Shown in pieces: positions 5,385 through 59,725 of a stretch of DNA of 64,000 nucleotides (position 1 is the stretch's first letter; each line of letters begins with the position of its first letter). Under the pieces are notes generated by a model. That model did no database searches. It was not told the origin of the DNA and worked only from the letters and a program-made list of their open reading frames with translations. Both the position numbers and the translations under genes were made by a program. Origin of the DNA: Barthelona sp. PCE (lineage: Eukaryota); assembly GCA_040285745.1 (NCBI GenBank), contig JAUFOR010000002.1, positions 124,001-188,000 of the forward strand, written 5' to 3'.

Positions 5385-6701
5385 ATGTCAACACTCACAC
5401 AAGAGGAGGTCATTAATAATCTTACGAATTCGGGCAAGAATGATTCTTTTTGTCAATACTTTCGCACATTAAGTATAAGCGATTTAAATAGTCGTGTATT
5501 TTACAAGGCCCTCAAGATATGCGTCACAAACGATATCAAAATGATTCACAAGGTCTACTATTCACTACTACAACTTTTACAGCCTGAGCTTAAATTTGTT
5601 GCAGCAGAAGACGTAGATGAGGAGGAAATCGGTGGAGAAGACAAGGGAGAAATTGTTGTCACGAATGTACCATCATCAATTGTCGATCTAGTTCATTTCC
5701 TCATTTATGATTTACTTGACTTCATTCCAACGTCAACAAACACATTTTGGAAACAGTTGGTACGGGTAAAGCCCGATTCACAGAGTCATCATATGCTTGT
5801 GCAGTCGTACTTAGGCAACTGTCTAAAATTTGCCTCTGAACTACCTTTTCTTTCAATGAGTATCCTACAGACAGTTCTTTTGTTTCTAATAGATGTAGAT
5901 TTGCTGGCTCATAATATGATTAACAATCCCAAAGAATCAGAGAATGCAAGCTATATTCAAACACTTGATTCAGTATTGTTCATGCTTTTCAGATACTTTT
6001 CGAATGTCACAAAGGAGGAAGAATCGAATTTTGAGTTCTTTGACCTCTTTCACAAAACTTTTTTTGATCAACTTGATACTCTCGGATTACAATACCTTGT
6101 TTTCTTAGTTGTTTGTCTTAAGGAGGACAACAAGGACGCCTTTCTTGAATCTTCTTTTGAATCTTTAAGAACTGACTCACTTGATGAGCTCACAATGATG
6201 CATTGGTTAGTTGGTATAACCAGTAGAGTGAAATCACTCAGTCAGCTTGATATTTTCAAGGTTTTAGAGTTTATTAATGTTCTTCTTCACAGCAATTTAG
6301 ATATACTAAGAGTTGAACAAATTTCTCTCATTTTAAGTGGATTGCTTTACATTATCATATATAGAATTGAAGATTTACTGGCTGGGTCCATCAAAGGAAC
6401 AACTATATTTAACCAAAAGATTGTCTTTATCAAAAAACTCATTTTTTCAGAATATGAACAGTTTTCTAAAGTTTTTATTGATAGAGAAGTTTTAATGAGT
6501 TTTGTTGATGTATGTGAATTCTATGATATCGATATCCCCTGTGCATGGCTTGAAACACTCTACAAAAACACATTTGTTGAAGAGCGCAATCCACTTCTAA
6601 AATTCCTCTTCGACCCTTATCCAGAAGTATTGGAATGTAGTAGGAAATTTATTACACAGTCATTTAAGGAATTTAGCAACCTAGAACACGTTAAAAAGTA
6701 A
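5385..6701 (+). CDS. RRN3: RNA polymerase I transcription initiation factor RRN3/TIF-IA-like
   Basis: YLGNCLKFASELPFLSMSILQTVLLFLIDVDL, LDSVLFMLFRY and C-terminal FLFDPYP...SRKFI resemble RRN3 blocks. Confidence 0.7.
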   Translation: MSTLTQEEVINNLTNSGKNDSFCQYFRTLSISDLNSRVFYKALKICVTNDIKMIHKVYYSLLQLLQPELKFVAAEDVDEEEIGGEDKGEIVVTNVPSSIVDLVHFLIYDLLDFIPTSTNTFWKQLVRVKPDSQSHHMLVQSYLGNCLKFASELPFLSMSILQTVLLFLIDVDLLAHNMINNPKESENASYIQTLDSVLFMLFRYFSNVTKEEESNFEFFDLFHKTFFDQLDTLGLQYLVFLVVCLKEDNKDAFLESSFESLRTDSLDELTMMHWLVGITSRVKSLSQLDIFKVLEFINVLLHSNLDILRVEQISLILSGLLYIIIYRIEDLLAGSIKGTTIFNQKIVFIKKLIFSEYEQFSKVFIDREVLMSFVDVCEFYDIDIPCAWLETLYKNTFVEERNPLLKFLFDPYPEVLECSRKFITQSFKEFSNLEHVKK

Positions 6702-6729
6702 ACAAAAATAATTAGGAATAATGGGGTTA

Positions 6730-6863
6730 GCGTGTTTCCCACTGACAGTCCCGTTTTTACTATTCTGATATTTAGACCGAAGTCCCGCGTGACGAGCGGT
6801 ATCAGAAAAGACTGTCAGCAGCTCCTTTCACATGAAACAGCGTCTTATTTATACTACAGACGC
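6730..6863 (-). ncRNA. Unidentified structured RNA candidate (rod with a branched end)
   Basis: Minus-strand stems UGCUGACAGUC/GACUGUCAGUG, UUCUGAUA/UAUCAGAA and UGUUUC/GAAACA. The end branches into CCGC-7nt-GCGG and GAC-UUCG-GUC (a cUUCGg tetraloop). Confidence 0.5.
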
Positions 6864-8315
6864 AAAAAGTAGTTTAACACAGTAAAAATGTATATGGTCT
6901 ATATTTGGGGTGTAATTTACACACCTTTCAATGTGAATAAAGAGTGAAACCCACTAACAGCTTCATTTTTACAAAAACCTTAACTTTAATATGTTAATAG
7001 TTCGTGGACAGCTCATCCCTACTTCCCTTAACAATATCTAAAAGTAAGAATTAACAAACAACTTCGATGCCTGCAGATCAATATTCGCTTCTGATATTCT
7101 CTTCTAATGTGATTTACAGAACTAACACTATTGTTTTACCAATTGTTTCAATTCTAAAATCTTAAAAATGCAGATTTAAAACGTGCCACCCAAAAAATTC
7201 GCAATCTGCAAACTGAATTTGTCACAATCATGATTCTGTATGTGTGTGACGCAAAGTATACAACCATTTTGTACGCATGGATTGAGAAACAAAACTTCCT
7301 ATTTTGTAAAAAAGTGAAATCTTGTAGAGAACCTTAAATATGATTGTAAAGTTGCTTAATACACTGTAACATAAGTAACAAACAAAATACAAAGCAAATA
7401 GCAGAAGAATTGTCAATACAAGCAAATATTTACACAAACTTGACTTCTTTATATATTATGATTAAAATTGTTATTGCATCGCGGATTGGGCACTCAGCTA
7501 TGATCCCAGACGATGCTGGGGGTTGAACTGAAGCTCACTATCAATGCTATTCTGCTTCGACCTATAAGATAGATAAATATGTGGGTTATTGCGTCACAGG
7601 CACCTTCATCATTGCTTTACACAACTCGGGTTACTTGCATCAGCGGAAAAAGGTCGAAAACTAAAATTCACAAGTTGCTATGCAGCTCTATCATTCCATA
7701 ACCATTCGTGCAATGAGCTAATAAATTACAACGAGCACTTTGATAATGATTTTTTTTGTCTAAGTTTATGAGGCATATAGAAAGAATTTTTGACCTCTAT
7801 TTTCTTAGTTGAGTATGATATGCTTAGCGCTATGATGCCTTCAATGAATCCTCCAGATCACTGAGTGATTCATTCTTGCTTAAAACAATGGACAGAGATA
7901 CATTTACTAAATAAAATCATGCTAAATTGATAGCTATAAAGAGTATTATGAAAGTCTTTTAACTTACTGCGTTCTCCCTTTTTACCCAATAAAGGGGACT
8001 GTAAGTTAAAGCAAAAACTGCCGGGCTCATAATTCTCCAAAATACTTTCAAAAAATATCATTGCTCCAATAAAAAGATGCTTTTTGAGGTGGATAAATCA
8101 CAAATAATAGTATAAACATCGAACAAACATTGTTTAAACAGCCAAAAATCTCACACAAGGACTAAACCTCATGTTGAATCATTATTAGCAGCTAATTTCG
8201 TAGTGGTAGCACAATAAATTGCTTAAAATCCCAAGAAATTGAAAAAAGGAGGAAGAATGACAAAAACCTGCTTTCAGTTTTATTTCTTGATTTCTACCCT
8301 TAATACATTTTCTAA

Positions 8316-9795
8316 ATGCAGGTTCGTGACATTAACAGTATTTCGTCTTACATACCAACACAAAAACTAACATTTATTCGACTTTCAACACGCCATTTCT
8401 CAAAAACCTATACACAAGGCCCCTCCTACTGTTTCTAACATCCAACCCCCGAACAAGCAGCAAAGGACCCCATTGAAACCTGATGTTGTAATCGAAACTT
8501 CAGTCACAACACTGGAATCAACTCCTAATTCAACTACAGAAGTTGAGCTGGTTTCACCATCTTGCAAACCCAACAAGGATGTTTACGTTGAGAAAGAGTA
8601 TGAACCGACAACGACTACCCCTTCTAAAGCTCCCAACCTACAGCCAACGACCGCTACAAAAAGCAAAAAACCAAAAGCACCGAAAACCAAGCCCGTTGCA
8701 ACCAAAAAAACATCCGAGGTCATTGATATAGATCTCCCTGAACCCGAAAACACCCAGGATCACATCGAAAACTGCACGAAAATCTATGATCAGATGAAAC
8801 AGCGCATTGCCGACCCTCAACGCTGCGAAGCCACACGCTATCCGCTCGACGTGGGTGACAAAATAATCTGGATCCCACAGGCCACCGAGAACGTCATTTC
8901 TCACTACAAGGATGAGGAATACGAACGTCCCAACTCTGAGCACTGGAACAATCCCTACGGATGCGTTATGGGTATCGTCACCGGGGTCCAAGACAGCCAT
9001 ATCTATGCGTATCAGCAGAGAATCACAATCAGTGAGCTCGATGCCCAATGCGTCAGTGATATCTCATCATCTGTCCATTCCTTTCTGTATGAGGACGATC
9101 ACGAGCTGAACGGCGCATCGTACACGCTCCCATACATGGAGATATTCGACAGCGATGTCCCCGTTTGCGTTATCACAGGCATGGCTCTTGCTCAGTCACT
9201 GGAACAGAAACCTAACAAGCACCCTTACTTTCATATGTACTACGGGTGCACTGATGACCCAACGCAGGTTCAAATTCATGAAGGTCGTGTGTGGGATACG
9301 CGTCCGTTTCAGGATACTTTTCCAAACTCACTTTTCAATAAGTACAAGGTCATCTGGTACGACACCCTCATGTCGGGCGAGTATGCCATCTCTATCGGCC
9401 AGTGCGAGCGCTATGTTTCACCATGGGAGGTTACCCTTGACTCGGAGGAGAACTACGCGTTCAAGAATAGTTACACTAACCAGGACGCAACAGTAAGGGA
9501 GAAAATTGTTGCGCTCCTTACAAGCATCAAGGACATGGAGGGATTTAAATCTTTGCTGAATAAGCCAACCAGTACTGAATGCATGGGCTACAATCAACGC
9601 TTCCCTAACGCCATTGATCTCAAGACGGTCGCCAAGCGCTGCGGCACATACAAGACCTTTAATGAGTTCATTGATGATATTGAAACTGTTGTACAACAAG
9701 CAAAAGAATGGAATAGTCCCGATCGTATCCAGTACATTGCTGCTGAGATGATTGAAAAGCGCATCGCACAGGCCCTCGATCACTATGCCCAATAA
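8316..9795 (+). CDS. BRWD1/PHIP-like protein (ancillary Tudor-like domain plus bromodomain, no WD40); the 5' exon join is inferred
   Basis: YPLDVGDKIIWIPQ and PFQDTFPNSLFNKYKVIW...VSPWEV match the BRWD/PHIP ancillary domain. GYNQRFPNAIDLKTV...QAKEWN is a bromodomain. The main frame is open from 8371; ATG 8316 needs an intron to join it. Confidence 0.7.
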
Positions 9796-16810: not shown

Positions 16811-18094
16811 ATGCGCCGCGCTCCACGAATGCAGCCCAATGAGGTGAAGCTTTCTTCAACACAGACCATTCAATCGATTGTATCTAATCCACACATAACG
16901 AAACTCGATCTGGGTCCACATGCACTCGAAGATGTGCGTGATATTGCGTCGCTTTGCTACCTACCACACCTAACAGAGCTAGATTTTGTTGCAGGAACGG
17001 AGTTTGTAGAAAAGTACATTATATTCATGTTTCCGACAATTAAAGTTATAAACGGGCGTGAAATCGACGACGAAGAGCGAACTTTTATTAGGATAAACAT
17101 ACACCGTTTCCACGTCAAGTACCCACTCAGTTTTCACAGTCTTTGCAAGTATCTGGCTTCAGCTGATCGGTCAGTGGACTCATCTCGCATCTCCAGCACG
17201 CTGTCTGAACAGCTGACACGTGTTAAGAATCCAAAATTCCTTGTTCGAACATCTGTATCATCACCCAAGTTTGAGCAAAAAATCCCTGTTATCCCGTATC
17301 AGGATACAAATATCAACAGAGACCTTGAGCGGGACCTCCTCCTCGAGGACCTGGAGGGACCGAACCGTAAACCGTCGCGTATGGCTCCGAAGATTGAAAA
17401 GCCTACGCCGAAGACGGTTATTCCCGAGATAAAGATCGTTAACGAGCGCCCCAAAGAGTACTTCTACCCCAAGCGCACGGATAGCGAATTAGAGGAGAAG
17501 AGACGTGCAGCTGTTTACACAAACGATGGCTCAGTTACCGTTTACTATCCAACGGGGGAGACAGCAATCACAGTAAGCCGCCTAGATGGCCTCTATTCCC
17601 TTGTGTTTGCGTACTCTCCAAGAGGAGACGTGCTTATTGCTCTCAACGATGAGGGTTACGGGCAAGTTCTCGACCACAATGGTAAACTGCTGTTGACGGT
17701 GTCTGAGGAAACTGTCATGGCGTGCACATCCGTGCTCCCCTCTTCGCTGATCAGCGAAGAGGAACGCCTTGACAAGACGGAGATAATCACCGGTGGCCTA
17801 CTCAAGTTGAGAGTTTCTCCTGATATTTTGCTCGAGTTCGACGTTGAGACGCGTAGAGCCGCAATTGTTTACGACAGACATATCCGCCTCCTGCTTAAAA
17901 ACACAGAGAGTCTGAACCCGGACCAGTACCTGGTGTCACCAGACATCAGCAGGATACAGACCACTCCAAAGGCGAAGCATAGCCGTAAGATCGTGACTCA
18001 GGAGATGAAGGAGTTACGGACGATGCAATCACGACTCAGCACGCTCCTCACAAAAATTGAAAACGAAACCAATGTCTTTGCGTCAAAGCTATGA
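16811..18094 (+). CDS. Protein with an N-terminal LRR/LRRcap-like region and a FAM194/ERICH6-like C-terminal domain
   Basis: LPHLTELDF...FPTIKVINGREI (LRRcap-like). DGSVTVYYPTGETAITV...LIALNDEGYGQVLDHNGKLLL resembles the FAM194 domain. Confidence 0.55.
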   Translation: MRRAPRMQPNEVKLSSTQTIQSIVSNPHITKLDLGPHALEDVRDIASLCYLPHLTELDFVAGTEFVEKYIIFMFPTIKVINGREIDDEERTFIRINIHRFHVKYPLSFHSLCKYLASADRSVDSSRISSTLSEQLTRVKNPKFLVRTSVSSPKFEQKIPVIPYQDTNINRDLERDLLLEDLEGPNRKPSRMAPKIEKPTPKTVIPEIKIVNERPKEYFYPKRTDSELEEKRRAAVYTNDGSVTVYYPTGETAITVSRLDGLYSLVFAYSPRGDVLIALNDEGYGQVLDHNGKLLLTVSEETVMACTSVLPSSLISEEERLDKTEIITGGLLKLRVSPDILLEFDVETRRAAIVYDRHIRLLLKNTESLNPDQYLVSPDISRIQTTPKAKHSRKIVTQEMKELRTMQSRLSTLLTKIENETNVFASKL

Positions 18095-19166: not shown

Positions 19167-20795
19167 ATGTCAGAAATCGTTCAAAGGCAGTTGGAAAGTT
19201 GTCTTCCAGAACTGCAAGAGTACCTAGAAAAAGAACTATTCACAAAAAACGAAATTTCCAAGATTTTGGATCGCAGAAGGCATTTTGAGTATCTTTTATT
19301 AAAGAGAACGCCTGAGGTATCTGATTTTCTCGAATACATTCAATACGAAAGTGCCTTAAAACTGCTCAAGGACGCACGCAAAAAGGAGAAGTCCGTTACA
19401 AAGTTAAACAATGACCATTTCCTCACTCAACGTGTGCAAATGCTCTTTAACCGGGCTGCTAACCGGTTTCCTGGGGATTTAAAGCTTTGGAATCAGTATT
19501 TAACAACCTTAATCAAGGATAACTCAGTTAAGCAACTCAATGGTGTTCTTGCCCGTGCAATCGCACTGCATCCACGCGAGCCCATGTTCTGGAAACTTGG
19601 AGCTGAGGTTTCTGTCGCTAACGGTGACTTCGATGCTGCTAGAAATCTTTTGCTGAGGTCATTATCAGGAAATAACGACTGCAACGATCTGTGGGCTGCA
19701 TATGCAGGCTTTGAAGTTAGCTATCTGGAGTTTCTGAGGTCAACTGGAGTGCTTAAAGTGTACCCTGGTGACAGTGATGAGCAAAAGGAATCGAAAACGA
19801 ATTTGGCTGCTGGAACTACCCTCCTAACTGTTTTAGATGGTGCTTTGGAGGCAGGAGTATCACAGGAGTGTCTCCGTCAGATCATTAAGAAAATTGAGAA
19901 AAAAATGGATACTGAGCTACTGCCCCAGGTATATGGATGTCTTGACATGGAAGATGACAAGAATGTCATGTTCTACTGGTCACATCAGCTGAGAATAAGG
20001 GTGGATTCAGCAGAAGAAACGATACTGATGCTGGTTTCGCTCGATGTTGAAGAGAAAGTGAGGTTCACAATGGTAATATGCGACATTCTCCTCATGCTGC
20101 ACGAGCAGCTAGAAGACGTGACCGCTGCCGTTTCACACTTTTTTGAACTTTGGAAAGAGGAAAAGGTGTGGGAGATCCACCAAGATGATTTGTTTTACAA
20201 GACTATGTACGCTCTTGTTGCTGCAATCCCATTCTCTGAGCCTGTCTACGCATTCTACATGGCTGTGATCACAGAAAACATTGTCAATGAGTACGTTTTC
20301 TCAGCTTTATATGTTATGAATGCAGAGATCGACTATCTCGATGTCTTACAGGAGGGAAAGTCAACCGTTCTCTTTGATCTTATGCTGAAGGACGACACAC
20401 GCGGTGTATCCGATGCAATCGACGTGTTGCGCGTCTTGAGTGAATCCGTCATCCACCGTAACACCAAAGAGAAATTTGTTATGACTTTCTTCTCGTTACC
20501 TCACATAATCAATGACCTCACAATCGATCATGTATACACGGTGCTATCACTTTTTGCTTTTGAGCCCAATATTATTGACTGCACTTTCCCTTTATACAGA
20601 ACACTTTTCACAACAGATCACCTGTTTGCGCTTCTTAAGCGCATCACAAAACGTTCGAATAACTACATGGTATGGTCCGTCTTTATCAAGTTAGTCGAAG
20701 AGCAAGGATCCCTAAAAGAATTCAACCATTGGCTTGAAATTGCCCGTCAGGAGGTTGATGATAACATAAAGTTTATCAGAGAGCTACAGAAGTAA
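19167..20795 (+). CDS. UTP6: U3 snoRNP/SSU processome protein Utp6 (HAT repeats)
   Basis: MSEIVQRQLESCLPELQEYLEKELFTKNEISKILDRRRHFEY...DFLEYIQYE; LFNRAANRFPGDLKLW. Confidence 0.9.
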   Translation: MSEIVQRQLESCLPELQEYLEKELFTKNEISKILDRRRHFEYLLLKRTPEVSDFLEYIQYESALKLLKDARKKEKSVTKLNNDHFLTQRVQMLFNRAANRFPGDLKLWNQYLTTLIKDNSVKQLNGVLARAIALHPREPMFWKLGAEVSVANGDFDAARNLLLRSLSGNNDCNDLWAAYAGFEVSYLEFLRSTGVLKVYPGDSDEQKESKTNLAAGTTLLTVLDGALEAGVSQECLRQIIKKIEKKMDTELLPQVYGCLDMEDDKNVMFYWSHQLRIRVDSAEETILMLVSLDVEEKVRFTMVICDILLMLHEQLEDVTAAVSHFFELWKEEKVWEIHQDDLFYKTMYALVAAIPFSEPVYAFYMAVITENIVNEYVFSALYVMNAEIDYLDVLQEGKSTVLFDLMLKDDTRGVSDAIDVLRVLSESVIHRNTKEKFVMTFFSLPHIINDLTIDHVYTVLSLFAFEPNIIDCTFPLYRTLFTTDHLFALLKRITKRSNNYMVWSVFIKLVEEQGSLKEFNHWLEIARQEVDDNIKFIRELQK

Positions 20796-21676: not shown

Positions 21677-23014
21677 TTAGTATTCGAAATCATCTTCCTC
21701 CTCTTCGTACTCGCCTTCCTCCTCAGCAACGGCATCCTGGTACTGTTGGTATTCAGCAACAAGATCGTTCATGTTGGACTCAGCCTCGGTGAACTCCATC
21801 TCGTCCATACCCTCACCAGTGTACCAGTGAAGGAATGCCTTACGACGGAACATCTTGGTGAACTGATCGTGGACACGCTTGAAGAGCTCCTGGATACAGG
21901 TGGAGTTACCAATGAAGGTAACACCCATCTTAAGACCCTTAGGAGGAATGTCACAAATGGAAGACTTGATGTTGTTGGGAATCCACTCAACGAAGTAAGA
22001 AGAGTTCTTGTTCTGGATGTTAAGCATCTGCTCATCAACCTCCTTGGAGGACATACGACCACGGAAGAGGGCGGAACAGGTCAAGTAACGACCGTGACGA
22101 GGATCAGAGGCAGCCATCATGTTACCAGAGTGGAACATCTGAGAAGTGAGCTCGGGAACAGTGATCTGACGGTAGGCAGAAGAACCACGAGAAGTGAGGG
22201 GAGCGAAACCAACCATGAAGAAGTGAAGACGAGGATAAGGAACCAAGTTAACAGCGAGCTTACGGAGATCGGAGTTGAGCTGACCGGGGAAACGGAGACA
22301 GCAAGTAACACCGGACATAACGATGGAAACGAGGTGGTTGAGGTCACCATAGGTAGGGGTGGTGAGCTTAAGGGTACGGAAACAAATATCGTAAAGAGCT
22401 TCGTTATCGATACACATGGTCTCTTCGGAGTTCTCAGTAAGCTGGTGAACAGAAAGAGTACAGTTATAAGGCTCAACGACGGTATCAGAAACCTTGGGGG
22501 AAGGAACGACGGAGAAAGTACACATTTGACGATCGGGATACTCCTCACGGATCTTGGCAATGAGGAGGGTACCCATACCGGCACCAGTACCACCACCGAG
22601 AGAGTGACAGATCTGGAAACCCTGAAGGCAGTCACAAGACTCAGCCTCCTTACGGACGATATCGAGGACGGAGTCAATGAGCTCAGCACCCTCGGTATAG
22701 TGACCCTTGGCCCAGTTGTTACCGGCACCGGTCTGACCGAAGATAAAGTTATCAGGACGGAAGAGATGGCCATAAGCGTTACCACGAATGGAATCCATAG
22801 TACCAGGCTCAAGATCAACTAAAACGGCACGGGGGACATACTTGCCACCGGCAGCTTCGTTGAAGTAAACGTTGATACGCTCCAATTGGAGGTCGGATTG
22901 ACCCTGGTAAGAACCAGTGGGATCAACACCATGCTCATCAGCAATGGTCTCCCAGAACTTGCTACCGATCTGGTTACCGCACTGGCCTGCTTGAATGTGG
23001 ACGATTTCACGCAT
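21677..23014 (-). CDS. TUBB: Beta-tubulin
   Basis: [24 protein letters not shown] and an acidic tail; strong codon bias. Confidence 0.99.
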
Positions 23015-23551
23015 TTAAAAAATGTATCTAAAAGTTAGAAAACCTTTTGGGCACAAAGCACCGCGCCTACGTGCACAACGCTGTTAGAGCGCTGAGCATG
23101 TACTTTGCGGAGCTTTTCTATGGTTGATCATACACAATAAGGATGAAAAAGGAAATTCAAGTTTTTAAAATTTTGAACTCATTCGATGCGATTGGTGACC
23201 TTCTTAGGTGTCAAAAGACCCCAAACATAGGTCTTTTTGACCCATACTCCTCAGGAAACTGAAAAAGCTTTTTTTTATCATCACTTTTACAATGAATCAG
23301 TGTGCTAGACCATAACAAAGCAGTGTAAGATATGCTATCTTGCTTGTGTGATGATGGATGCCTTTAATTCGACCCTTTTCTCATACCTGCCTATGCAATT
23401 CAAAATCTTTACATCTTACGGTATATTCATTGTGTTACATCGTGCACACACTTAGTTGCCAAACAAATAGGAGCATTGAATACGTGCAATCCGTAGAACC
23501 CGACTAATACAACGGTGCGCACTTTGTGCCCGCTTGCAGTGAGTATAAGCA

Positions 23552-24274
23552 GTCACAAGTCGCCAAACGGGCATCTAGTGGGTAAGTCCAGCAGACAAAT
23601 TTACACAAAAGCAAAGAAGCACAGCGAAAAAATTATGGTTAAATAAAAACTATCATATAAACCTACTACCTGCCGGTCTCGACAATGCACCGCACAATAG
23701 GCGGCAGCAAAGTCGAGAGAGGCTCGGTCATCAACGTAGCACAAGTCTACAAAACTTCACGAACGGCAGCAGGTTAGTGGAATCATCTAGTCTTAACGTT
23801 ATGTCTCTTTCGAGAACGATAGATCAAAACTAACTAAAGAAATGATCCTATAGAGCATAGTCGTAATAAAAGAAAATGCAAGGTCTTCTACTCTTTCGCG
23901 CACTGTCCGCACCTTCACGCAGATGTACTGTTACGTTTATTGTTGTATGTGGTGTCCGTTATCCATTGAGAAGGCCGTGCGTGCTTTTTTTAGGATCCAA
24001 CCATGAGGCCATCTGTGGTGGCACATACACTCTGCTTTGGCGTTTCAATGTGTGTTTATGCTGACTTCAAGCGAGATATACCACCTTTGAGGCTAAGAAA
24101 TTCCGTTAAAGATTCAGTTGGATTTTGTGGTCTATTTCGCTTGAATGTCCTTAAGAATGATGTGTGGTGTGTTTTTATGGATCTTTTCGGAATAAGGCAT
24201 CATATTATTTCGCTATGAAGTCTTAACTCTACTATATGAGAAGTATGTTGAACTTTGTTATTTGATCAAATTTA
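23552..24274. repeat. Left arm of a 723-bp perfect inverted repeat
   Basis: Base-by-base reverse complement of 25739-26461 with no mismatch or indel found. Mirrored ORFs in the track all sum to 50013. Confidence 0.97.
23648..23864 (-). ncRNA. U3: U3 snoRNA, copy 1
   Basis: Identical inverted copy of 26149-26365. Confidence 0.88.
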
Positions 24275-24953
24275 ACCGGCGTTGTTTATTTCTCGTTTTA
24301 TCCATATTTAGAACAACGCATCTGGTTCACAGAGGATAATTGTACACTTTAGTGTTGCAGAATGGAGTTTGTTTGTTTTGAAATGATTTTTTCTTTCAAT
24401 ATTTGTTGATAAGGTTACCTGATGCATGATTCATTCAGTTCTCATGAGAACAGTGGTACGTTGTAGAAGTTCAATTGTCATAGTATTTATGAAAGTAGAG
24501 TGATGTATTGCTTTGAAAATGCTTGTATTTGTTACTCTTACCTTTTACATTTTTTTTTGGCTTAGTTATGGGGCTTTATTACGAAATATGCCACGCTTTA
24601 AGGAAAATATTGCGGGAAACTTTACATTACAACCTCTTATTAGATATTGCACAGTCAGTAGCACTTCTGTTAAACACAAGAAAGGTGTGTATTATTGGGA
24701 GACTACAGGATTCGTTCACAGCTGGTCCAACTGCATGGGAAGATGATAAGACTGTTCTATGCTGCTGAGATTAACTATGTTAAAATCTAACGTGTTTTAC
24801 TTTATGACTCATATCCGGCCAGATGTGGGATGTAACAGGCTGGAATTGAACTATTTGAATTATTGATAGGAGATTACGTTTTTAGAGTTAATGTTTTCTT
24901 AATTACATTTCATAAGATTTCATAGTTGCCTGTGTGGAAAACAGAAAAATTTT

Positions 24954-25167
24954 GATTTATACTGAAGTGGGTTTATTGACGTCGGGGGAACGCTCACATG
25001 GGAAGGCTCGCCTTCACGCGTGGAGTGTGTTTCGTCCTGGAATTGGCTCAATATCCCCTTTTTTTTCAAAAAGGGAAGACAAAACTATGTAGGGTTCCAA
25101 GAACACCATCCACACAAGAAGGTTCGCTTCGTCCCCCTCCGCTGTTTACTACCTCAAGTATAAAGTC
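24954..25167 (-). ncRNA. Unidentified rod-like structured RNA candidate (about 215 nt)
   Basis: Nested stems on the minus strand with many G-U pairs, tandem G-A pairs and a GAAA tetraloop tip. A T5 run follows just downstream. Confidence 0.55.
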
Positions 25168-25738
25168 TGAAGGCTAGCGCATATATGTCACCGTTGGATA
25201 TTATGTTGAGAGAGAATTATCATAAAGATGGAAAAATAGTCTTGTTGACTTTAATACTCAGTTGTGGAATGTGATATATATCCTGGTATTGGTGTGTTTG
25301 GTGGATTTACTTTCATTGCATTGAAGAAAGAAGGAGCTATGTATTATTTTCGGATAGTGATGGCATTTGATGAAGTGAAGATATGCTACACATTGAAAAT
25401 TGTTCAAGTAGTTGTTGTTGTACGGTTTTAGACTTCAAAGAATGATCACAGTGGACGATGAATATGGATAACAATTTTAAACTTTTTGATCAAAAATGGT
25501 ATTACTTCCTTATTCATGCAGTCAGAGACCCGAAGTAAGACCCGTGGACTTGATTTTGCATAACACGCTTGTTTAACACACTAGTTCGTAGCAGTAAATT
25601 TGCCTGTTGAGAGTGCAAAGGATACTCCCTCATTCAGCTTTTCTTCTTTTTCGCATATTTTTTAAAAAAGAGGCAATGGAACAGTTCACAGGGCAAACTC
25701 AGCACTCGGTGCAGCTCGCTGCTTTGGATAGGTTCATG

Positions 25739-26461
25739 TAAATTTGATCAAATAACAAAGTTCAACATACTTCTCATATAGTAGAGTTAAGACTTCATAG
25801 CGAAATAATATGATGCCTTATTCCGAAAAGATCCATAAAAACACACCACACATCATTCTTAAGGACATTCAAGCGAAATAGACCACAAAATCCAACTGAA
25901 TCTTTAACGGAATTTCTTAGCCTCAAAGGTGGTATATCTCGCTTGAAGTCAGCATAAACACACATTGAAACGCCAAAGCAGAGTGTATGTGCCACCACAG
26001 ATGGCCTCATGGTTGGATCCTAAAAAAAGCACGCACGGCCTTCTCAATGGATAACGGACACCACATACAACAATAAACGTAACAGTACATCTGCGTGAAG
26101 GTGCGGACAGTGCGCGAAAGAGTAGAAGACCTTGCATTTTCTTTTATTACGACTATGCTCTATAGGATCATTTCTTTAGTTAGTTTTGATCTATCGTTCT
26201 CGAAAGAGACATAACGTTAAGACTAGATGATTCCACTAACCTGCTGCCGTTCGTGAAGTTTTGTAGACTTGTGCTACGTTGATGACCGAGCCTCTCTCGA
26301 CTTTGCTGCCGCCTATTGTGCGGTGCATTGTCGAGACCGGCAGGTAGTAGGTTTATATGATAGTTTTTATTTAACCATAATTTTTTCGCTGTGCTTCTTT
26401 GCTTTTGTGTAAATTTGTCTGCTGGACTTACCCACTAGATGCCCGTTTGGCGACTTGTGAC
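25739..26461. repeat. Right arm of the 723-bp perfect inverted repeat
   Basis: Reverse complement of 23552-24274; the unique spacer is 24275-25738 (1464 bp). Confidence 0.97.
26149..26365 (+). ncRNA. U3: U3 snoRNA, copy 2
   Basis: 5' ACGACTATGCTCTATAGGATCATTTCTTTAG (GAC/box A'/box A), box C' GATGA (26226), box B CGTGAAG, box C TTGATGACCG and box D variant ATGA (26357). Terminal stem GACTA/TAGTT and an 11-bp stem AACCTGCTGCC/GGTAGTAGGTT; about 217 nt. Confidence 0.9.
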
Positions 26462-26510
26462 AGTTTAAGATCTTTTTGCTTAATCACTAGGAGGTATACC
26501 CATTTTTTAT

Positions 26511-28880
26511 TTACAAAGCGCTGTACTTTCTCAGCAGCATCTTTTGTTTGGAACACATGTTTATCACATTGTCTAACTCATCCTCCAATTTAGCAATTTC
26601 TCTTCTGACGCGAATAGTTTGGTGTTGTCTACGTTTCTTATTCAAATCGTTATTGACTCGATCTTTCTCAAGTTGCCACTTCAACAGCTCTTTTTCGATT
26701 CTTTCAATCTGAATCTCTCCCTGAGTAACCGTGTTATCAGCAAAAATCTGTCGTGAGGGGCTCTGCTGTTGTGTAATCGTAATTGACGATACATGTTTTT
26801 GTACTTTCGGTGATCCTGGTTCAGGGAATAGGTTAGATTGCATCTCTTTCTGATGCATTTGCTGATTGTAACTCATCTGCTGTTGTTGCCCGACTCCGGC
26901 CTTCTTCCTCCTCATAAATTCTTCGAAAGACATTGGAGGTGGGGGTTTGTTCGGATCGTTACCAATAGATGAGTACATCTTCATCATCGCGTTATGTCCG
27001 CGCTTCATCTTATCTTCGAATTCCTTCTTCTTTGCGAGTAATGCTGCGCTTGCATTGGTATATTTGGGTTGAGCTGGTTGTGACTGCTGCGGGTTTATAT
27101 ATCCATTTTCTTGATGAGTGTGACCCTGCTGCTCATATTGAGTCTGTTGAGCTTGGATTCGTCGCTGTTGCTCATACATTCTTTCCCTATGTGCGGCAGC
27201 CTGTCTTTGCTCTTCCATCTGTCTCTCCAAGTCTTGTACACGCTTCTGCTCATTGGAGAGCATTTGCTCATATCTGTTAACGTACGTCTCAAACTTTGAC
27301 TCCATCGTACGCTGCAATTCTTCGAGCCTATCCGGCTCATCTCTTTGTAACTGAACAGGTTTCGCTGCCTGTTGCGGCTGCTTCACAGGTGTCCGCTCCA
27401 TCACAACTGGTTGACGCGGTTCAGCATTGCGCTTCCTGGGAGAGTCAACGAATTGATTTTCCTCATTTCCGAGTGTAAAGTGGGACTGTTGGCGGGTCTT
27501 GTTGCCCTGGGCACGTGCATGGTGTTGCGTTGGGGAACGGTTTAGAGCATGCTTCGGTGCAAATGGGTCAACAGTGTCATTCTGGGAAAACGGTGCTCTT
27601 TTTTGTTGTTGTTGTTGGTTGCTCATTGAGTACTTCTGTTCATCAATAGTCCGCTGTAGGCTCTCGTTTTTCCGGCACAGACTTGAAACTTCGCTTTCAA
27701 GGGAATGTACTAGATTCTGTTTTTCCGAAATTTCTTTCTTCATCGTCTTTAGTGTGGTACTTAATTCGCGAACCTGTACCTCTGCATCCTGCTGCAGACG
27801 GAGTCTGTCTTTTGCCTGCTCCTTCAACTTGTTCGACTCCTTCTCAGACATGTTGAGCTCATTGCTCAATTGCAACACTTGCAGGCCAAGCTTCTCCTTC
27901 TCTTGTTTCAATATGCTCTGCTTTTTCTCCGCTTCCTTCATGTATGCATCCTGGTTGCCCTTAATACGAGCTATATCGGCCTCAAGCATGGTGTTTTTCT
28001 CCTTCATCTCTGTAACAGTTCTTCTGTGCGTGTTTTGCAAAGCGCTGAGCGCCACACGGGTGTCTTCCAACCGCTCCTGTAAGGATAGGTTCTCAACAGC
28101 AAGTTTATCATGGTTCTTTATCTTCTGCTGCTGATCATCTGTTAATCCCATCGGTAGCTCTATCTCCTTGCGTGATCCAATGAAAGAGCTTTGCTCCTTG
28201 CGAATAGGGCTCACCTCGACGTCCGAATGATGAACGGGGGATAACAACTTTATGGGAGAAATTTGTTTCTCTTTCAATGACTCGTTTCTTGCGATTTCTT
28301 CATCCGAGTCAGTCATATCAATGGGAACGCGCGTCATTGTCGGTCCCTTTTGCAACGGTCGCTGTTCTTGCAACATGTGTTGTGGCATGTATCGAGGATC
28401 ATAAGCCAGCTGAGGATTCATCTGAGGATTCATCTGAGGATTCATCTGCGGTGGAGGGTAATAGTACATGGGGAACGGCTGAGGGGCGCCATAATACATC
28501 TGTTGCGGCATTCCGTGAGGCTGTGTTGGCTGGTGAACGTGGTTTGATTGGAGAGGTGTTTTCTTTGCAAATACTTCCCTGCGAGGTGTAGGATTTTTAC
28601 GGACAGGTGACTCGAATTCCGACTCGTGGTTCATGATAGGATCAGGAAGAGAGAGATCTGTGTCTTCATTCATCAATGCCTCTTGTAAAAACTTGTTTCT
28701 TCGTGACACAACCCGTCTCATTTCGTCTGTATCAGTTGTTTGCGAGGGGGCATACTCTGAGAACACAGGGCTAGGCTGTGCGGTCCCACAAAGCAGCGAG
28801 TAAAGATCATTTGATGCAGACTCTTCTTTCTGCGAATTGTTGTACCCCAATGCGCTCATCCTTTGTGATATGTCAGTCAT
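26511..28880 (-). CDS. Gln-rich coiled-coil protein with an MPHOSPH9-like C-terminal domain (centriole/basal body candidate)
   Basis: C-terminal IERIEKELLKWQLEKDRVNNDLNK...TIRVRREIAKLEDELDNV...LLRKYSAL; short MNPQ tandem repeat at about 28408-28448. Confidence 0.55.
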   Translation of the reverse strand: MTDISQRMSALGYNNSQKEESASNDLYSLLCGTAQPSPVFSEYAPSQTTDTDEMRRVVSRRNKFLQEALMNEDTDLSLPDPIMNHESEFESPVRKNPTPRREVFAKKTPLQSNHVHQPTQPHGMPQQMYYGAPQPFPMYYYPPPQMNPQMNPQMNPQLAYDPRYMPQHMLQEQRPLQKGPTMTRVPIDMTDSDEEIARNESLKEKQISPIKLLSPVHHSDVEVSPIRKEQSSFIGSRKEIELPMGLTDDQQQKIKNHDKLAVENLSLQERLEDTRVALSALQNTHRRTVTEMKEKNTMLEADIARIKGNQDAYMKEAEKKQSILKQEKEKLGLQVLQLSNELNMSEKESNKLKEQAKDRLRLQQDAEVQVRELSTTLKTMKKEISEKQNLVHSLESEVSSLCRKNESLQRTIDEQKYSMSNQQQQQKRAPFSQNDTVDPFAPKHALNRSPTQHHARAQGNKTRQQSHFTLGNEENQFVDSPRKRNAEPRQPVVMERTPVKQPQQAAKPVQLQRDEPDRLEELQRTMESKFETYVNRYEQMLSNEQKRVQDLERQMEEQRQAAAHRERMYEQQRRIQAQQTQYEQQGHTHQENGYINPQQSQPAQPKYTNASAALLAKKKEFEDKMKRGHNAMMKMYSSIGNDPNKPPPPMSFEEFMRRKKAGVGQQQQMSYNQQMHQKEMQSNLFPEPGSPKVQKHVSSITITQQQSPSRQIFADNTVTQGEIQIERIEKELLKWQLEKDRVNNDLNKKRRQHQTIRVRREIAKLEDELDNVINMCSKQKMLLRKYSAL

Positions 28881-29932: not shown

Positions 29933-32900
29933 CTATGTTTGCCACACAATCTCTTCAATTACACCTTCAAGTGTCCTGTTCATGAGTGCAATGAGCTGTG
30001 AGATGGAAAATACACAGTATCTCTGTTCTCCTTCTTTCTTAGGCTTCGATTCTTCCATATCATGCAAAAATGTCACACCTCTGTAGTTGTCAACCTTCGA
30101 CTCCTGAAGCTTGAACGCGTCGGGTCTCAGAACGACGCCAATCTCCGTGTAGTCCATGTTGGGGAAGAGCAAACAAACACCTTCAGTTTTTGCCTGTAAT
30201 TCGTCATACAATTCCTTGAGGGGGTTAACAACAAAGATTGCGTTGTTGTACTCTGAATGTGTCTTTGCCAGTGATAAATTAGCGTACTTCTGCTTTTGCT
30301 GCTTTGAATTCTTGCTGAAAATATCGCTACATTTGATCGTAAAGTTGAATCGTTGTCTCTCCTCCTCTTCTGAAACTGGAGCACCAAGGAACTGTTCATA
30401 GCGGCGCTCGGGCAGCTTATTCAACCGGTTGAGTGTGTATCTAGCCATTGTCACGACGAGTTGAAGCGAGTACTGATCTACGCCATTATTCCACAGAGTG
30501 CCATCAGCATCGTACGCGGTGATGATGCGGATACACTCCTCCTTCTTGGAAGCCTTGGAGAAAGATGAGACGTGGATGATGTTTTCAAGAGAAATGTCTG
30601 AAAAAGAGGGAACCAGCATTGTGTTAGGTGTGGTTACGCTGAGTTCAGATACAAATCGGAATGCGTGATTCACAAGCGCGCTGGTATTACACGTACGATA
30701 CCCGAGGGCGAATGCGCTGGCAACGGCACCGCAGAACAGCAATTCTATAAACTCTGATCGGAACGGGAGCATCTTAGCGACTGCCCAAGCTCTAAAGAGA
30801 CGGAAAGCGCGCAGAACGCCCTTGTTGTTGGGATGCAGATAGTTCTTCACCATTGATACGTGGTGTTTCTTTGCATAGTAGAACTGATCAAAAACTATAC
30901 GTGTGGGTGTACCCATGTCATCTTCCTCCTTAAGGTAGATGGCACGTTGCGACGGAACGTAGATCTCAAACGACCAGACATAACCGCCAAAGACAACGAT
31001 AAGACGGTTTGTGGCTACGGCTGAGAAAAGAGACTTACCGTACTGCGGCAGCTTGCGGAGACCGGCGTGCATCTCAACGTAAAACCCAATCTTCAGCTGA
31101 TCGATCGCCACAGCATCCTCAGGCCAACCACCGCTATGTTCCAATGTCAGGAGGACGCGCTCTCCTTCATAGAAGCTGTGCTCATCGGCAGGGAGTGGTG
31201 TGTCGAAAAGAGGCGTTGGTTCCCTGATGTAACTCGATTTGTCAGACAATGAAGAGAAGTTGATAACGGTCAGTGGTAGCTCTAGTCCCTTGATTATGTC
31301 TGTGACTTCACCATACGCAGCGTCGAACGCAAAGTGGGGGTCCAGGTTCTCCTTTGCGGGTGCATCATTGACCTTGAGCGTGAATGCCAAGTCGAATTTG
31401 AACGATTCAACCTTCATCAGCAAAAGACGTTGGAATAGATAGCTTACGACAACGTACATACGCTCGACCAGCGACACTTTCTTAGGGAGTATGACGGTCT
31501 CGAGAATAGACCCGTCCTTGAATCTTCGAAGACCTGAGAGCTCACCCCAGAACTGATAGAACTCTCTTGCGGCAGCGGTCTTGGCTGTTGGTCCCTTTAG
31601 GACATAATCGAATCTGTAGTTATCGTTCAAGCGCAGCATCAATTGCAGGTCCTCACCCGGTACCGCTACAACTGCGTCGAACAATGGGAGAGAAGCGAGG
31701 ACGGATGCAAACTCCATCATGAAAAGCCAAGCGAACTCATCGACTGACTGGCATAGCAGTTGCTGAAGGGTGCCGTTCTCATACCACAAACCCATTGTTA
31801 GATCCTGGATAGAGAGACCAAAATCGCTGAGAGTCATTTTGTAGTCGAAGTGGTCCGAAACGGTTTTCTTCTTATGGAAGAGTGCGTTGAAGCAGTCAAC
31901 AACGACGCCTTCTTCGTATTGGAGCATGGCATACATGTCGGAAAAGAGCATCTTAAGTATTGATACAAACGACAGTGGCATGTACCTCAGGACATTCAGT
32001 CCATCAACAATAAATATGCCAACGTTCCTCTCCTCAAACAGGGAGTACTCGGCGAGAGCCTGCTTCTCAAAGCGCTTCTTTTGCATCTTTGACATAACCT
32101 TACTGTTGATAATGACCAAATTGGTTATTCCGTCCTTGAAATGAGAAAGGAAAACACGAAGCAGCTGGAAACTGCTCATATGGTTGAAGATAAGACTGTT
32201 TTTGAAGAGATATAACCACAAAACGTTGGTGTCAAATTTGAATGTCTCCAAGAAATACTTCTTTGAGAGACCATGGTTCGTCAGCAACAGGTCAAGGAGA
32301 ACCATACCCTGTGATACGTTGGGCACGGTCTCAAACATAACCAAAAAGTCATCGCGAAGTGAATCACGAATACCGAGTTCAATTAAGCTTTGATTGTAGT
32401 AGATTGAAGGGACTGGATCACATTCCACGGGCTCAGGGAGCTTTTCAGGATGGATGTTGCACCTCTGAAGGGAAACAATATCTTCTGAGAATTGGTTGTC
32501 CAGGCAAGGGTTGATCCGCAGTTGAATGCGTTTCTCAATCTTTGGCAGCACAATAGATACCATGACAGAAGCTTCCTCTGTATCTACGTCGTCAACCCAC
32601 TCGAGATTAATCATTTGTGAAGCCAGGTGTGTTTGGAGTGCCGTGATTACGTCTGTGATGAGGTTGTTACGTACCTTGAAGCTACCCACGAGTTCGAAAG
32701 GGTACACTGCAAGGAGGTCTACAACGAAAACATCATCTTTCGCATTGAATGCTGTGAAAAGGTAGTCACCATATGTGACAATTTTGGGGCGTTCAAAGCG
32801 AATTCTACGATGATCCTTATCATGGTTGATGAAGGAGAGACCGTTCTCGATCTGATCGCGAATAGTAAACTCTGTAGCTTCCAGAGAATTGATGAATTGA

Positions 32901-33109
32901 AAAAACTGATGCTTTAAGAAGTTTGCAATTCCACTGTATACTTGTTTGGGGACAATTGAGTCTTCCAGGAGGCCCTCTACGAGACGTTTCATGACGAAAC
33001 CCGAATATAGAAGCTTAGCCGACTGGATCTCCTGCAGCTCTTCCAGTGTCGGTAAGTCTTTATCGTGAAGCTTCGTTCTCTGGGCCTTTAATGGTGGTGA
33101 GTTTGGCAT
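29933..33109 (-). CDS. UTP22: Utp22/NOL6 (Nrap) SSU processome protein
   Basis: KGPTAKTAAAREFYQFWGELSGLRRFKDGSILETV and LEHSGGWPEDAVAIDQLKIGF. Start taken at ATG 33109. Confidence 0.9.
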   Translation of the reverse strand: MPNSPPLKAQRTKLHDKDLPTLEELQEIQSAKLLYSGFVMKRLVEGLLEDSIVPKQVYSGIANFLKHQFFQFINSLEATEFTIRDQIENGLSFINHDKDHRRIRFERPKIVTYGDYLFTAFNAKDDVFVVDLLAVYPFELVGSFKVRNNLITDVITALQTHLASQMINLEWVDDVDTEEASVMVSIVLPKIEKRIQLRINPCLDNQFSEDIVSLQRCNIHPEKLPEPVECDPVPSIYYNQSLIELGIRDSLRDDFLVMFETVPNVSQGMVLLDLLLTNHGLSKKYFLETFKFDTNVLWLYLFKNSLIFNHMSSFQLLRVFLSHFKDGITNLVIINSKVMSKMQKKRFEKQALAEYSLFEERNVGIFIVDGLNVLRYMPLSFVSILKMLFSDMYAMLQYEEGVVVDCFNALFHKKKTVSDHFDYKMTLSDFGLSIQDLTMGLWYENGTLQQLLCQSVDEFAWLFMMEFASVLASLPLFDAVVAVPGEDLQLMLRLNDNYRFDYVLKGPTAKTAAAREFYQFWGELSGLRRFKDGSILETVILPKKVSLVERMYVVVSYLFQRLLLMKVESFKFDLAFTLKVNDAPAKENLDPHFAFDAAYGEVTDIIKGLELPLTVINFSSLSDKSSYIREPTPLFDTPLPADEHSFYEGERVLLTLEHSGGWPEDAVAIDQLKIGFYVEMHAGLRKLPQYGKSLFSAVATNRLIVVFGGYVWSFEIYVPSQRAIYLKEEDDMGTPTRIVFDQFYYAKKHHVSMVKNYLHPNNKGVLRAFRLFRAWAVAKMLPFRSEFIELLFCGAVASAFALGYRTCNTSALVNHAFRFVSELSVTTPNTMLVPSFSDISLENIIHVSSFSKASKKEECIRIITAYDADGTLWNNGVDQYSLQLVVTMARYTLNRLNKLPERRYEQFLGAPVSEEEERQRFNFTIKCSDIFSKNSKQQKQKYANLSLAKTHSEYNNAIFVVNPLKELYDELQAKTEGVCLLFPNMDYTEIGVVLRPDAFKLQESKVDNYRGVTFLHDMEESKPKKEGEQRYCVFSISQLIALMNRTLEGVIEEIVWQT

Positions 33110-58697: not shown

Positions 58698-58975
58698 ACA
58701 AGAAGAATTGTTTTAGTTCATCTATTTAGCAGCATTAGACGCAAGGGCGCACGCTGAGAGGGAGGGTCTGAAACATCCATGTCACGCACGCGCAGAAGGA
58801 CAGACTAGAAGATTGATTTTCATAAAAACAGAATCTACCCAAAACAGCTCACTCCAACAGTCCCACTTTCACAGTAAGATGCATGCTTCATATGCCATCC
58901 ATCCACAACTTGTGTACCTCTGAGGTCCATCTAACAACACATTCAATTTTCTCTCTGTAATCACAGTACACAATA

Positions 58976-59725
58976 ATGTTTAACAATATGCAACAGCCTG
59001 GTATGGGTATGCAGCCCGGTATGGGTATGCAGCCTGGTATGGGTATGCAGCCTGGAATGGGTATGCAGCCTGGTATGGGTCAGCCTGGTATGGGCATGCA
59101 GCCTGGTATGGGCATGCAGCCTGGTATGATGAACCAAGGTTTTGCCGCCCCTCAATTTGGTCAGCCTATGCAGACCAACCCTATGATGAATATGATGCAG
59201 AGTTCTTTCGGTTTCCAAATGCCTCAGTTCGGTCAAGGTATGATGAACCCCCTTCAGCAGAAGTTTCAACAGCTCGATACTGATCGCAGCGGTTCTATCT
59301 CTGCCCCTGAGATCTACCAACAACTTGGTATGAACGGTCCCAACGCCTTCCTTGCCGCTAAGCTGCTCACACGTCTTTTCTCTAATCCCATGAGACCCGG
59401 TGAGATTGATATTCAGTCATTCGCGATGTTTGATGCCTTCCTCCAGAAGCTTCAGGGTATTTGGAGTCAGCTCGGCGCTCGTGATGGTTCCATCTCCGGT
59501 CAAGAATTTTATGCTGTCCAAAGCATGCTCCCTGGTCTCCAGGCCACCCCTGGTATCCTCCAGAACCTCTTCATGACATTTGCTCAGAGAGGTGTCCTCA
59601 ACTATGAAGGTTACGTTGTCGTCTGTACCTTCCTGTACCTTGCTAACCGTCTTATGGCTCAGAGCCCTCAGCTCGCCCAGCTCGGTTATGAGAGCGTCAT
59701 GAACTTCGTTCTCCAGTTTGTCTAA
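58976..59725 (+). CDS. Penta-EF-hand-like (peflin/ALG-2-type) protein with an MQPGMG-repeat N-terminus
   Basis: EF-hand DTDRSGSISAPEI and a Gly/Pro/Met/Gln low-complexity N-terminus. Confidence 0.7.
   Translation: MFNNMQQPGMGMQPGMGMQPGMGMQPGMGMQPGMGQPGMGMQPGMGMQPGMMNQGFAAPQFGQPMQTNPMMNMMQSSFGFQMPQFGQGMMNPLQQKFQQLDTDRSGSISAPEIYQQLGMNGPNAFLAAKLLTRLFSNPMRPGEIDIQSFAMFDAFLQKLQGIWSQLGARDGSISGQEFYAVQSMLPGLQATPGILQNLFMTFAQRGVLNYEGYVVVCTFLYLANRLMAQSPQLAQLGYESVMNFVLQFV
58988..59127 (+). repeat. Coding tandem repeat, 18-bp unit ATGCAGCCTGGTATGGGY (about 7 copies, one shortened)
   Basis: Directly visible in the sequence; encodes MQPGMG. Confidence 0.9.

Follow-up and report, generated by a model that had tools for sequence, protein, structure and literature searches.

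Does the strongly folding stretch that lies between the two arms of a large inverted repeat in the genome of Barthelona sp. PCE represent a small RNA gene in its own right, or is it a hairpin without function, left behind by the duplication that surrounds it? Barthelonids are metamonad flagellates that branch deeply, as the sister group of Fornicata, and they have hardly been studied. We addressed this question in a contiguous stretch of 64,000 nt (hereafter, the window; GC ~42%, with dense, intronless genes, roughly one every 1.9 kb), for which a first-pass annotation had proposed a rod-shaped RNA, read from the minus strand, in the spacer of a large palindrome. The genome as a whole has been described as 10.2 Mb in 8 contigs, with 40.3% GC and 4.46% repeats, and as the smallest reported for any free-living eukaryote (PMC11316075). 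The terms non-coding, tRNA, snRNA and SRP do not occur in the main text of that paper, and non-coding RNA is not a subject in the titles and abstract openings found under the genus name Barthelona, among the matches listed.

The proposed RNA (hereafter, the rod) sits in the largest of the 34 intergenic distances in the window, a gap of 3496 nt compared to a median of 127 nt (Table 1). A protein gene in this gap was considered and rejected for unspliced ORFs, since none exceeds 75 aa and an exact look-up of eight of them in the protein collection found none. As to the two protein genes that bound the gap, a scan of metagenomes with the beta-tubulin gene returned 79 loci, all of them at most 87% identical, and hence none from a close relative. 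The 789-aa ORF on the other side is Q/N/P-rich and has no Pfam family; a protein search with it gave no homologue, with the candidates swamped by low complexity, and it is missing in its exact form from the protein collection, so that the annotated model probably differs. The gap is not the only long one in the window: a second noncoding stretch of ~1.5-2 kb (~6700-8400; GC 0.33-0.34) has ORFs of at most 75 aa and no Rfam match, which indicates that the genome tolerates some long spacers. Of the RRN3 profile, the 438-aa ORF that precedes this second gap (~6702-8400) covers positions 134-219 alone, and the remainder of RRN3, judging by the profile alignment, may have been split off or lost.

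Table 1. Positions of the rod, the U3 snoRNA genes and the surrounding features (numbering of the window)
Feature	Position	Strand	Remarks
Beta-tubulin gene	21677..23014	-	Left bound of the 3496-nt gene-free gap
Left repeat arm	23546..24274		Perfect 729-nt inverted repeat
U3 snoRNA gene, left copy	23647..23864	-	Directed away from the spacer
Spacer	24275..25738		Unique, 1464 nt; AT-rich apart from the rod; no annotated protein
T5 run	24945..24949	-	Separated from the 3' end of the rod by 4 nt; reads A5 on the plus strand
Rod	24954..25167	-	214-nt imperfect hairpin, 69 pairs, GAAA tetraloop; basis: MFE fold, shuffles and GC island
Internal T5	25068..25072	-	5' side of the apical helix
Right repeat arm	25739..26467		Perfect 729-nt inverted repeat
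U3 snoRNA gene, right copy	26149..26366	+	Directed away from the spacer
Box A, right U3	26165-26179
Box C', right U3	26225-26232
Box B-like, right U3	26253-26258
Box C, right U3	26280-26285
Box D-like, right U3	26356-26363
T5, right U3	26364-26368
T6, right U3	26381-26386
789-aa low-complexity ORF	26511..28880	-	Right bound of the gap; stop codon 43 nt from the repeat end

The palindrome is present as described, with arms that are 100% identical around a single-copy spacer, and it is the sole long repeat in the window; a short tandem repeat (18 nt, 8 copies, 58969-59146) gives an EF-hand protein a G-M-Q-P-type repeat at its start. What the first-pass annotation had overlooked is the content of the arms. 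Each of them carries what covariance-model alignments and the order of the boxes indicate to be a full-length U3 snoRNA gene, and the identical head-to-head pair represents new annotation of a known kind of gene. Both copies (218 nt) align to all model positions (1-209 of 209) of the Rfam family ACEA_U3 (RF01848) with 48.4 bits and an E-value of 1.4e-8 (2.1e-6 for the whole window), and to Plant_U3 (RF01847) with 36.9 bits and an E-value of 1.7e-7. The former falls short of the 55 bits that Rfam sets as gathering score; the copies were missed at that threshold and found in E-value mode. Boxes A, C', B-like, C and D-like follow one another in the correct order, box D deviating from the consensus (AUGA), and the 5' domain is unpaired to the 3' domain. 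A T5 run comes directly after box D and a T6 run 13 nt later, with no run longer than T4 inside the gene. Plant U3 genes are transcribed by Pol III and likewise end in a T5, and the T5 after box D hints, by analogy with them, at Pol III transcription of the U3 genes described here. The arrangement differs from the U3 families of Rfam in that two identical copies stand head-to-head in a perfect inverted repeat.

Since the two U3 genes point outward, their upstream regions (410 nt per arm) face the spacer. With U3 genes in the arms, the context of the rod becomes a small-RNA gene island rather than an anonymous palindrome. Each arm also contains a 19-nt inverted repeat (24066-24145 and 25868-25947; 89% complementary, with a 42-nt loop) about 200-280 nt upstream of U3, which could be a promoter-region element. 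At a larger scale, genes for Utp6 (PF08640) and Nrap/Utp22 (PF17404/5), at 19167-20795 (+) and 29933-33109 (-), flank the U3 pair, neither of them more than 4 kb away; the proximity of these U3-associated protein genes may be a coincidence or may reflect a small ribosome-biogenesis neighbourhood.

Turning to the rod, the MFE structure of its minus strand is one unbranched hairpin of -74.4 kcal/mol, as the first-pass annotation had drawn it, with a nearly identical centroid structure and a mean pair probability of 0.89 for the MFE pairs. The pairs comprise 29 A-U, 31 G-C and 9 G-U, distributed over 14 helices of 8, 5, 2, 3, 6, 2, 2, 5, 8, 4, 8, 4, 2 and 10 bp from base to tip, and the helices are separated by asymmetric loops (9x3, 2x13 and 5x6 nt) and a 2x2 tandem GA/GA loop, among others. 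Most of the nested helices listed earlier reappear in this fold: the 8-bp terminal helix, GAGGU/ACUUC, the GCG, tandem GA-GA and GGGGGA segment, CCUUC/GAAGG, the 8-bp UGUGUGGA, GUGU/ACAC, the 8-bp UCUUGGAA, and the uninterrupted 10-bp apical helix closed by GAAA. The exception is GAAG/CUUC, in place of which the MFE fold has a 13-nt bulge. The GNRA loop and the tandem G-A pairs that had been reported are thus both part of the MFE structure, and within the symmetric loops 5 of the 10 opposed bases are G-A and only a single A-C opposition occurs. The base composition of the rod is balanced.

The energy of this fold is far better than expected from composition. Comparison with dinucleotide shuffles, a check named beforehand, gave a z-score of -4.70 with 0 of 200 shuffles as good, and in a second test none of 2500 shuffles reached the native energy (mean -53.97, sd 4.49, best -69.7 kcal/mol). 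The claimed preference for the minus strand was also borne out, with the plus strand folding at -65.0 kcal/mol (z -2.32; 4 of 200 shuffles as good), and under DNA parameters the z-scores are weak (-2.01 and -1.22). Further, an alignment of the two arms of the rod that allowed Watson-Crick pairs only scored 11 against a null of 8.2 +/- 1.4 with a maximum of 14.5, which is not significant. The structural signal is, therefore, at the RNA level and strand-specific, not at the DNA level. The 9 G-U pairs compared to a single A-C opposition on the minus strand agree with this conclusion, but the count is biased, the structure having been optimised on that strand; the MFE structure of the plus strand has 8 G-U pairs of its own. 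When the halves of the rod were folded singly, nothing notable appeared (z -1.09, -1.51, -1.91 and +0.92); that is, the pairing runs between the halves. Adding 30-50 nt of flank lowers the significance of the rod (z -2.60). The extent of the signal in the sequence is also marked by base composition: the rod has a GC content of 0.47 against 0.30-0.36, with 0.53-0.58 in its arms, compared to 0.22-0.45 in the spacer and 0.44 in the U3 genes, and this GC island matches the extent of the two arms exactly.

How unusual such a fold is depends on the background against which it is judged. In a structure scan of the window (1595 positions on both strands, 214-nt segments, step 40, energy regressed on GC), the GC-corrected residual of the rod corresponds to z -3.24, and the only stronger residuals belong to the two U3 copies (-3.6) and to one coding stretch (17601-17814, plus strand, -4.38). 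By the shuffle z-score the order of rod and U3 is reversed (-4.70 for the rod vs. -3.93 for the neighbouring U3 segment). The rod, then, stands out, although other segments of the 64 kb do so too, and it is clearly beyond chance inside the 1464-nt spacer. Within the 3.5-kb gap, predicted structure peaks in three places only, at the two U3 genes and, between them, at the rod, in each case on the sense strand. The coding stretch with the top structural residual of the window (17590-17830, plus strand) lies inside a 427-aa ORF with a FAM194 domain and folds at -88.5 kcal/mol (z -3.85; 0 of 200 shuffles; MFE frequency 0.029). Since a coding stretch folds comparably well, a gene cannot be proven by fold statistics on their own.

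The signals for transcription are mixed. The T5 run that had been noted beyond the 3' end of the rod (24945-24949) is there, and it mirrors the T5 that ends the neighbouring U3 genes; its role could be that of a Pol III terminator or, alternatively, of an Sm-like U-tract with a weak hairpin (-2.2 kcal/mol) behind it. A run of the same length as the one that ends U3 also lies inside the rod, at its apex, and the plus strand has a T8 near the apex (25059-25066). To judge from its position, the apical T5 argues against a full-length Pol III transcript of the rod: it would halt Pol III midway, leaving no rod, so that a full-length RNA would need Pol II or read-through. A pair of half-length Pol III genes was rejected as neither half of the rod folds notably. 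So was a Pol III type-2 gene, as A- and B-box matches do not rise above chance; at the rod there are only matches with two mismatches, on the plus strand and 160 nt apart, and across the window the numbers are at expectation for both boxes (117 vs. 111 expected and 190 vs. 208 expected). A promoter common to the rod and U3 can be set aside as well: k-mer comparison of the 410 nt upstream revealed no word that both have at a similar distance. A 12-nt motif for 3' processing has been described for ncRNA genes of Giardia (PMC3510501), and its matches in the window number 5 compared to 6.4 expected, none of them near U3 or the rod.

A search of the rod against 4227 Rfam families returned no match to any of them. 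More specifically, no SRP, U5, U2 or telomerase covariance model matched at E<=10 in the region 24700-25400, and no SRP model reached its gathering score anywhere in the window. The suggestion that the rod may be a divergent SRP RNA was not supported. The apex of SRP helix 8 is a GNAR tetraloop with, within a few pairs, a conserved symmetric loop that has AGCA on its 3' side. The rod resembles SRP RNA (7SL or 4.5S) in its shape, its GNAR-type apical tetraloop and its paired 5' and 3' ends, but it differs in that the conserved helix-8 loops, helix 6 and the Alu domain are lacking: AGCA is absent on both strands, the 10-bp apical helix is unbroken, and both the MFE and the centroid structures are unbranched. 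U5 was rejected on the same grounds, with no match at E<=10 and with the loop-I 9-mer absent from the rod. For U2 there is again no match at E<=10, and the single GUAGUA (position 16) has flanks that, by eye, add no similarity to U2; the U2 of Giardia is treated in PMC3510501. RNase P/MRP RNA has no model match either, and, read by eye from 5' to 3', the rod has its G-run and C-run in the opposite order to a P4 helix; H/ACA and C/D snoRNA covariance models likewise gave no match to the rod.

Telomerase RNA, the other identity that had been suggested on the basis of an ACCCUAC template, fared no better. For Barthelona sp. PCE the telomere repeat has been reported as TATATGGTCT (PMC11316075), and its complement gives no match of at least 11 nt in the 64 kb and none of at least 9 nt in the rod. 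(One exact 10-nt copy of the complement of the repeat occurs far from the rod, at 6891-6900 on the minus strand in the second noncoding gap; this is within chance.) The 7-mer AACCCUA of the rod fits only a TTAGGG-type repeat. The rod is similar to telomerase RNA in being small and structured and in having this 7-mer, which would be able to template such a repeat, but the ACCCUAC motif sits in the 9-nt internal loop of a hairpin that is predicted without a pseudoknot, and the reported telomere is a different one.

It is still conceivable that the rod represents one of these universal RNP RNAs (SRP, telomerase or a U5-like snRNA) that has diverged past recognition of its defining motifs. Family models are apparently weak in this lineage, given that even U3 scores under its gathering score (48.4 vs. 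55), and the GNAR-type tetraloop, the 7-mer AACCCUA and the U-tract with a small hairpin after the 3' end would all be in keeping with such an origin. Against it stand the lack of any SRP, U5, U2 or telomerase match at E<=10, the absence of AGCA and of the U5 loop-I 9-mer, the lack of a template for the reported telomere repeat, the unbranched fold, and a 3' hairpin of only -2.2 kcal/mol. We rank this origin as the least probable of all those considered here.

The strongest competitor is that the rod is a functionless hairpin, i.e., chance or relic inverted similarity that was left by the inverted duplication of U3 and is either untranscribed or transcribed without consequence. It is important to note that the rod was picked from 64 kb after the fact, that in the scan of the window one coding stretch surpasses it and the U3 copies match it, and that it has neither a family match nor a promoter motif in common with U3. 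The internal T5 and T8 at its apex, the existence of a second long noncoding gap in the window, and the bias of the G-U count toward the optimised strand (with 8 G-U pairs in the plus-strand MFE) also favor this explanation. Such a hairpin does not easily account for a native energy that 0 of 2500 shuffles match, or for a GC island that coincides exactly with the two arms. Nor is the rod a decaying DNA palindrome, since the Watson-Crick-only alignment of its arms is not significant and its DNA folds are weak. A larger decayed palindrome centred on the rod was rejected as well: outside the rod, the flanks of the spacer have no inverted similarity (score 12 vs. a null of 13.2 +/- 1.9), i.e., they are not inverted copies of each other and the rest of the spacer has no palindromy that would mark such a repeat, and the apex of the rod (~25067) and the point about which the large repeat is centred (25006.5) are ~60 nt apart. 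We consider the absence of function nearly as likely as a small RNA gene, which we tentatively prefer.

Three other explanations assign the locus a different role. The rod could give rise to small RNAs as an miRNA- or hpRNA-like precursor, transcribed by itself or together with adjacent spacer sequence and processed by a Dicer-type enzyme. This role is compatible with the single long hairpin, whose ends are paired and whose mean pair probability is 0.89, and small RNAs derived from snoRNA loci have been described in Giardia (PMC2583053), but the MFE index of the rod (0.74) is low against the norms for such precursors, large asymmetric loops (2x13 and 9x3) interrupt the duplex, and the words Dicer and Argonaute do not appear in the main text of PMC11316075. 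We regard a precursor as quite improbable. Less probable again, in our view, is a non-autonomous foldback or MITE-like transposon remnant that was inserted between the U3 genes. The ends of the rod do form inverted repeats, with 8 perfect bases and an imperfect extension, and its size is typical of such elements; however, no target-site duplication is visible at its ends, there is no second copy in the 64 kb, only 4.46% of the genome is repetitive (PMC11316075), and the arms are not significantly alike at the DNA level. The rod resembles long-hairpin precursors and MITE-derived hairpins in being a single hairpin with ~100 nt per arm, and it differs from them in its large asymmetric loops, the low similarity of its arms as DNA, and the lack of a target-site duplication and of a second copy in the window. 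Finally, the locus could act as DNA, i.e., as a cruciform, an origin or a centromere-like core, with the repeat working as in the inverted-repeat centromeres of yeasts. The centromeres of Komagataella phaffii and Barnettozyma consist of a near-perfect inverted repeat of 0.5-2.7 kb around a unique core of ~1 kb in a long gene-free gap (PMC5010909, PMC12711049), and a perfect inverted repeat with a unique core in the largest gene-free gap of the window does resemble them. However, the organism belongs to another eukaryotic supergroup and is not a yeast, the arms are accounted for by functional RNA genes (U3), and the folds under DNA parameters are weak. A yeast inverted-repeat centromere was also rejected on account of the flagellar/ciliary proteins found by Pfam (CFAP74/PapD-like and FAM194), and a yeast origin because human or plant homologues resemble the proteasome alpha subunit at least as closely as yeast PRE5 does. 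The beta-tubulin belongs to the same 90% cluster as a protein named from Barthelona sp. PCE. We find a DNA-level element highly improbable, above only a diverged universal RNP RNA.

We favor, with less than even confidence, the hypothesis that the rod is an independent, lineage-specific structured small RNA gene inside the U3 gene island. Several lines of evidence point in this direction: the structure is strand-specific at the RNA level and coincides with a GC island on its two arms, authentic small-RNA genes flank it in the largest gap of a compact genome, and a T5 run follows its 3' end, as at U3. We infer that such a gene would be transcribed from the minus strand over the whole 214 nt, by Pol II or by Pol III reading through the T5 run, and that its RNA would fold into one extended hairpin. 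The tandem sheared G-A pairs, the GNRA tetraloop and the asymmetric loops would fit a protein-binding scaffold (i.e., an RNP RNA) better than a Dicer substrate. Consistent with a small RNA gene at this position, the U3 genes of Euglena and trypanosomatids have other small-RNA genes as neighbours (U3-U5 and U3-tRNA), at distances from a few hundred bases to ~1 kb (PMC2784804). In this linkage of Euglenozoa the partner is downstream, convergent and a known RNA, whereas the rod is upstream, between two divergent U3 copies, and unclassified.

A bolder version of this hypothesis would make the rod an abundant RNP RNA of a new, rod-shaped class, or else a universal RNP RNA (e.g., SRP RNA) that has diverged beyond recognition in barthelonids, in either case coupled to U3 in the most streamlined genome known for a free-living eukaryote and kept in a gene-converting palindrome. 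We consider this version unlikely.

In conclusion, the firm gain from this locus is the annotation of two identical U3 snoRNA genes that stand head-to-head in a perfect repeat, and the rod between them is a credible and testable candidate for an orphan structured RNA. Should it turn out not to be expressed or conserved, it would still be useful, as an illustration of how far one can be misled by fold statistics alone. If it is expressed and conserved, it would provide an entry point to the RNP repertoire of the barthelonid lineage.
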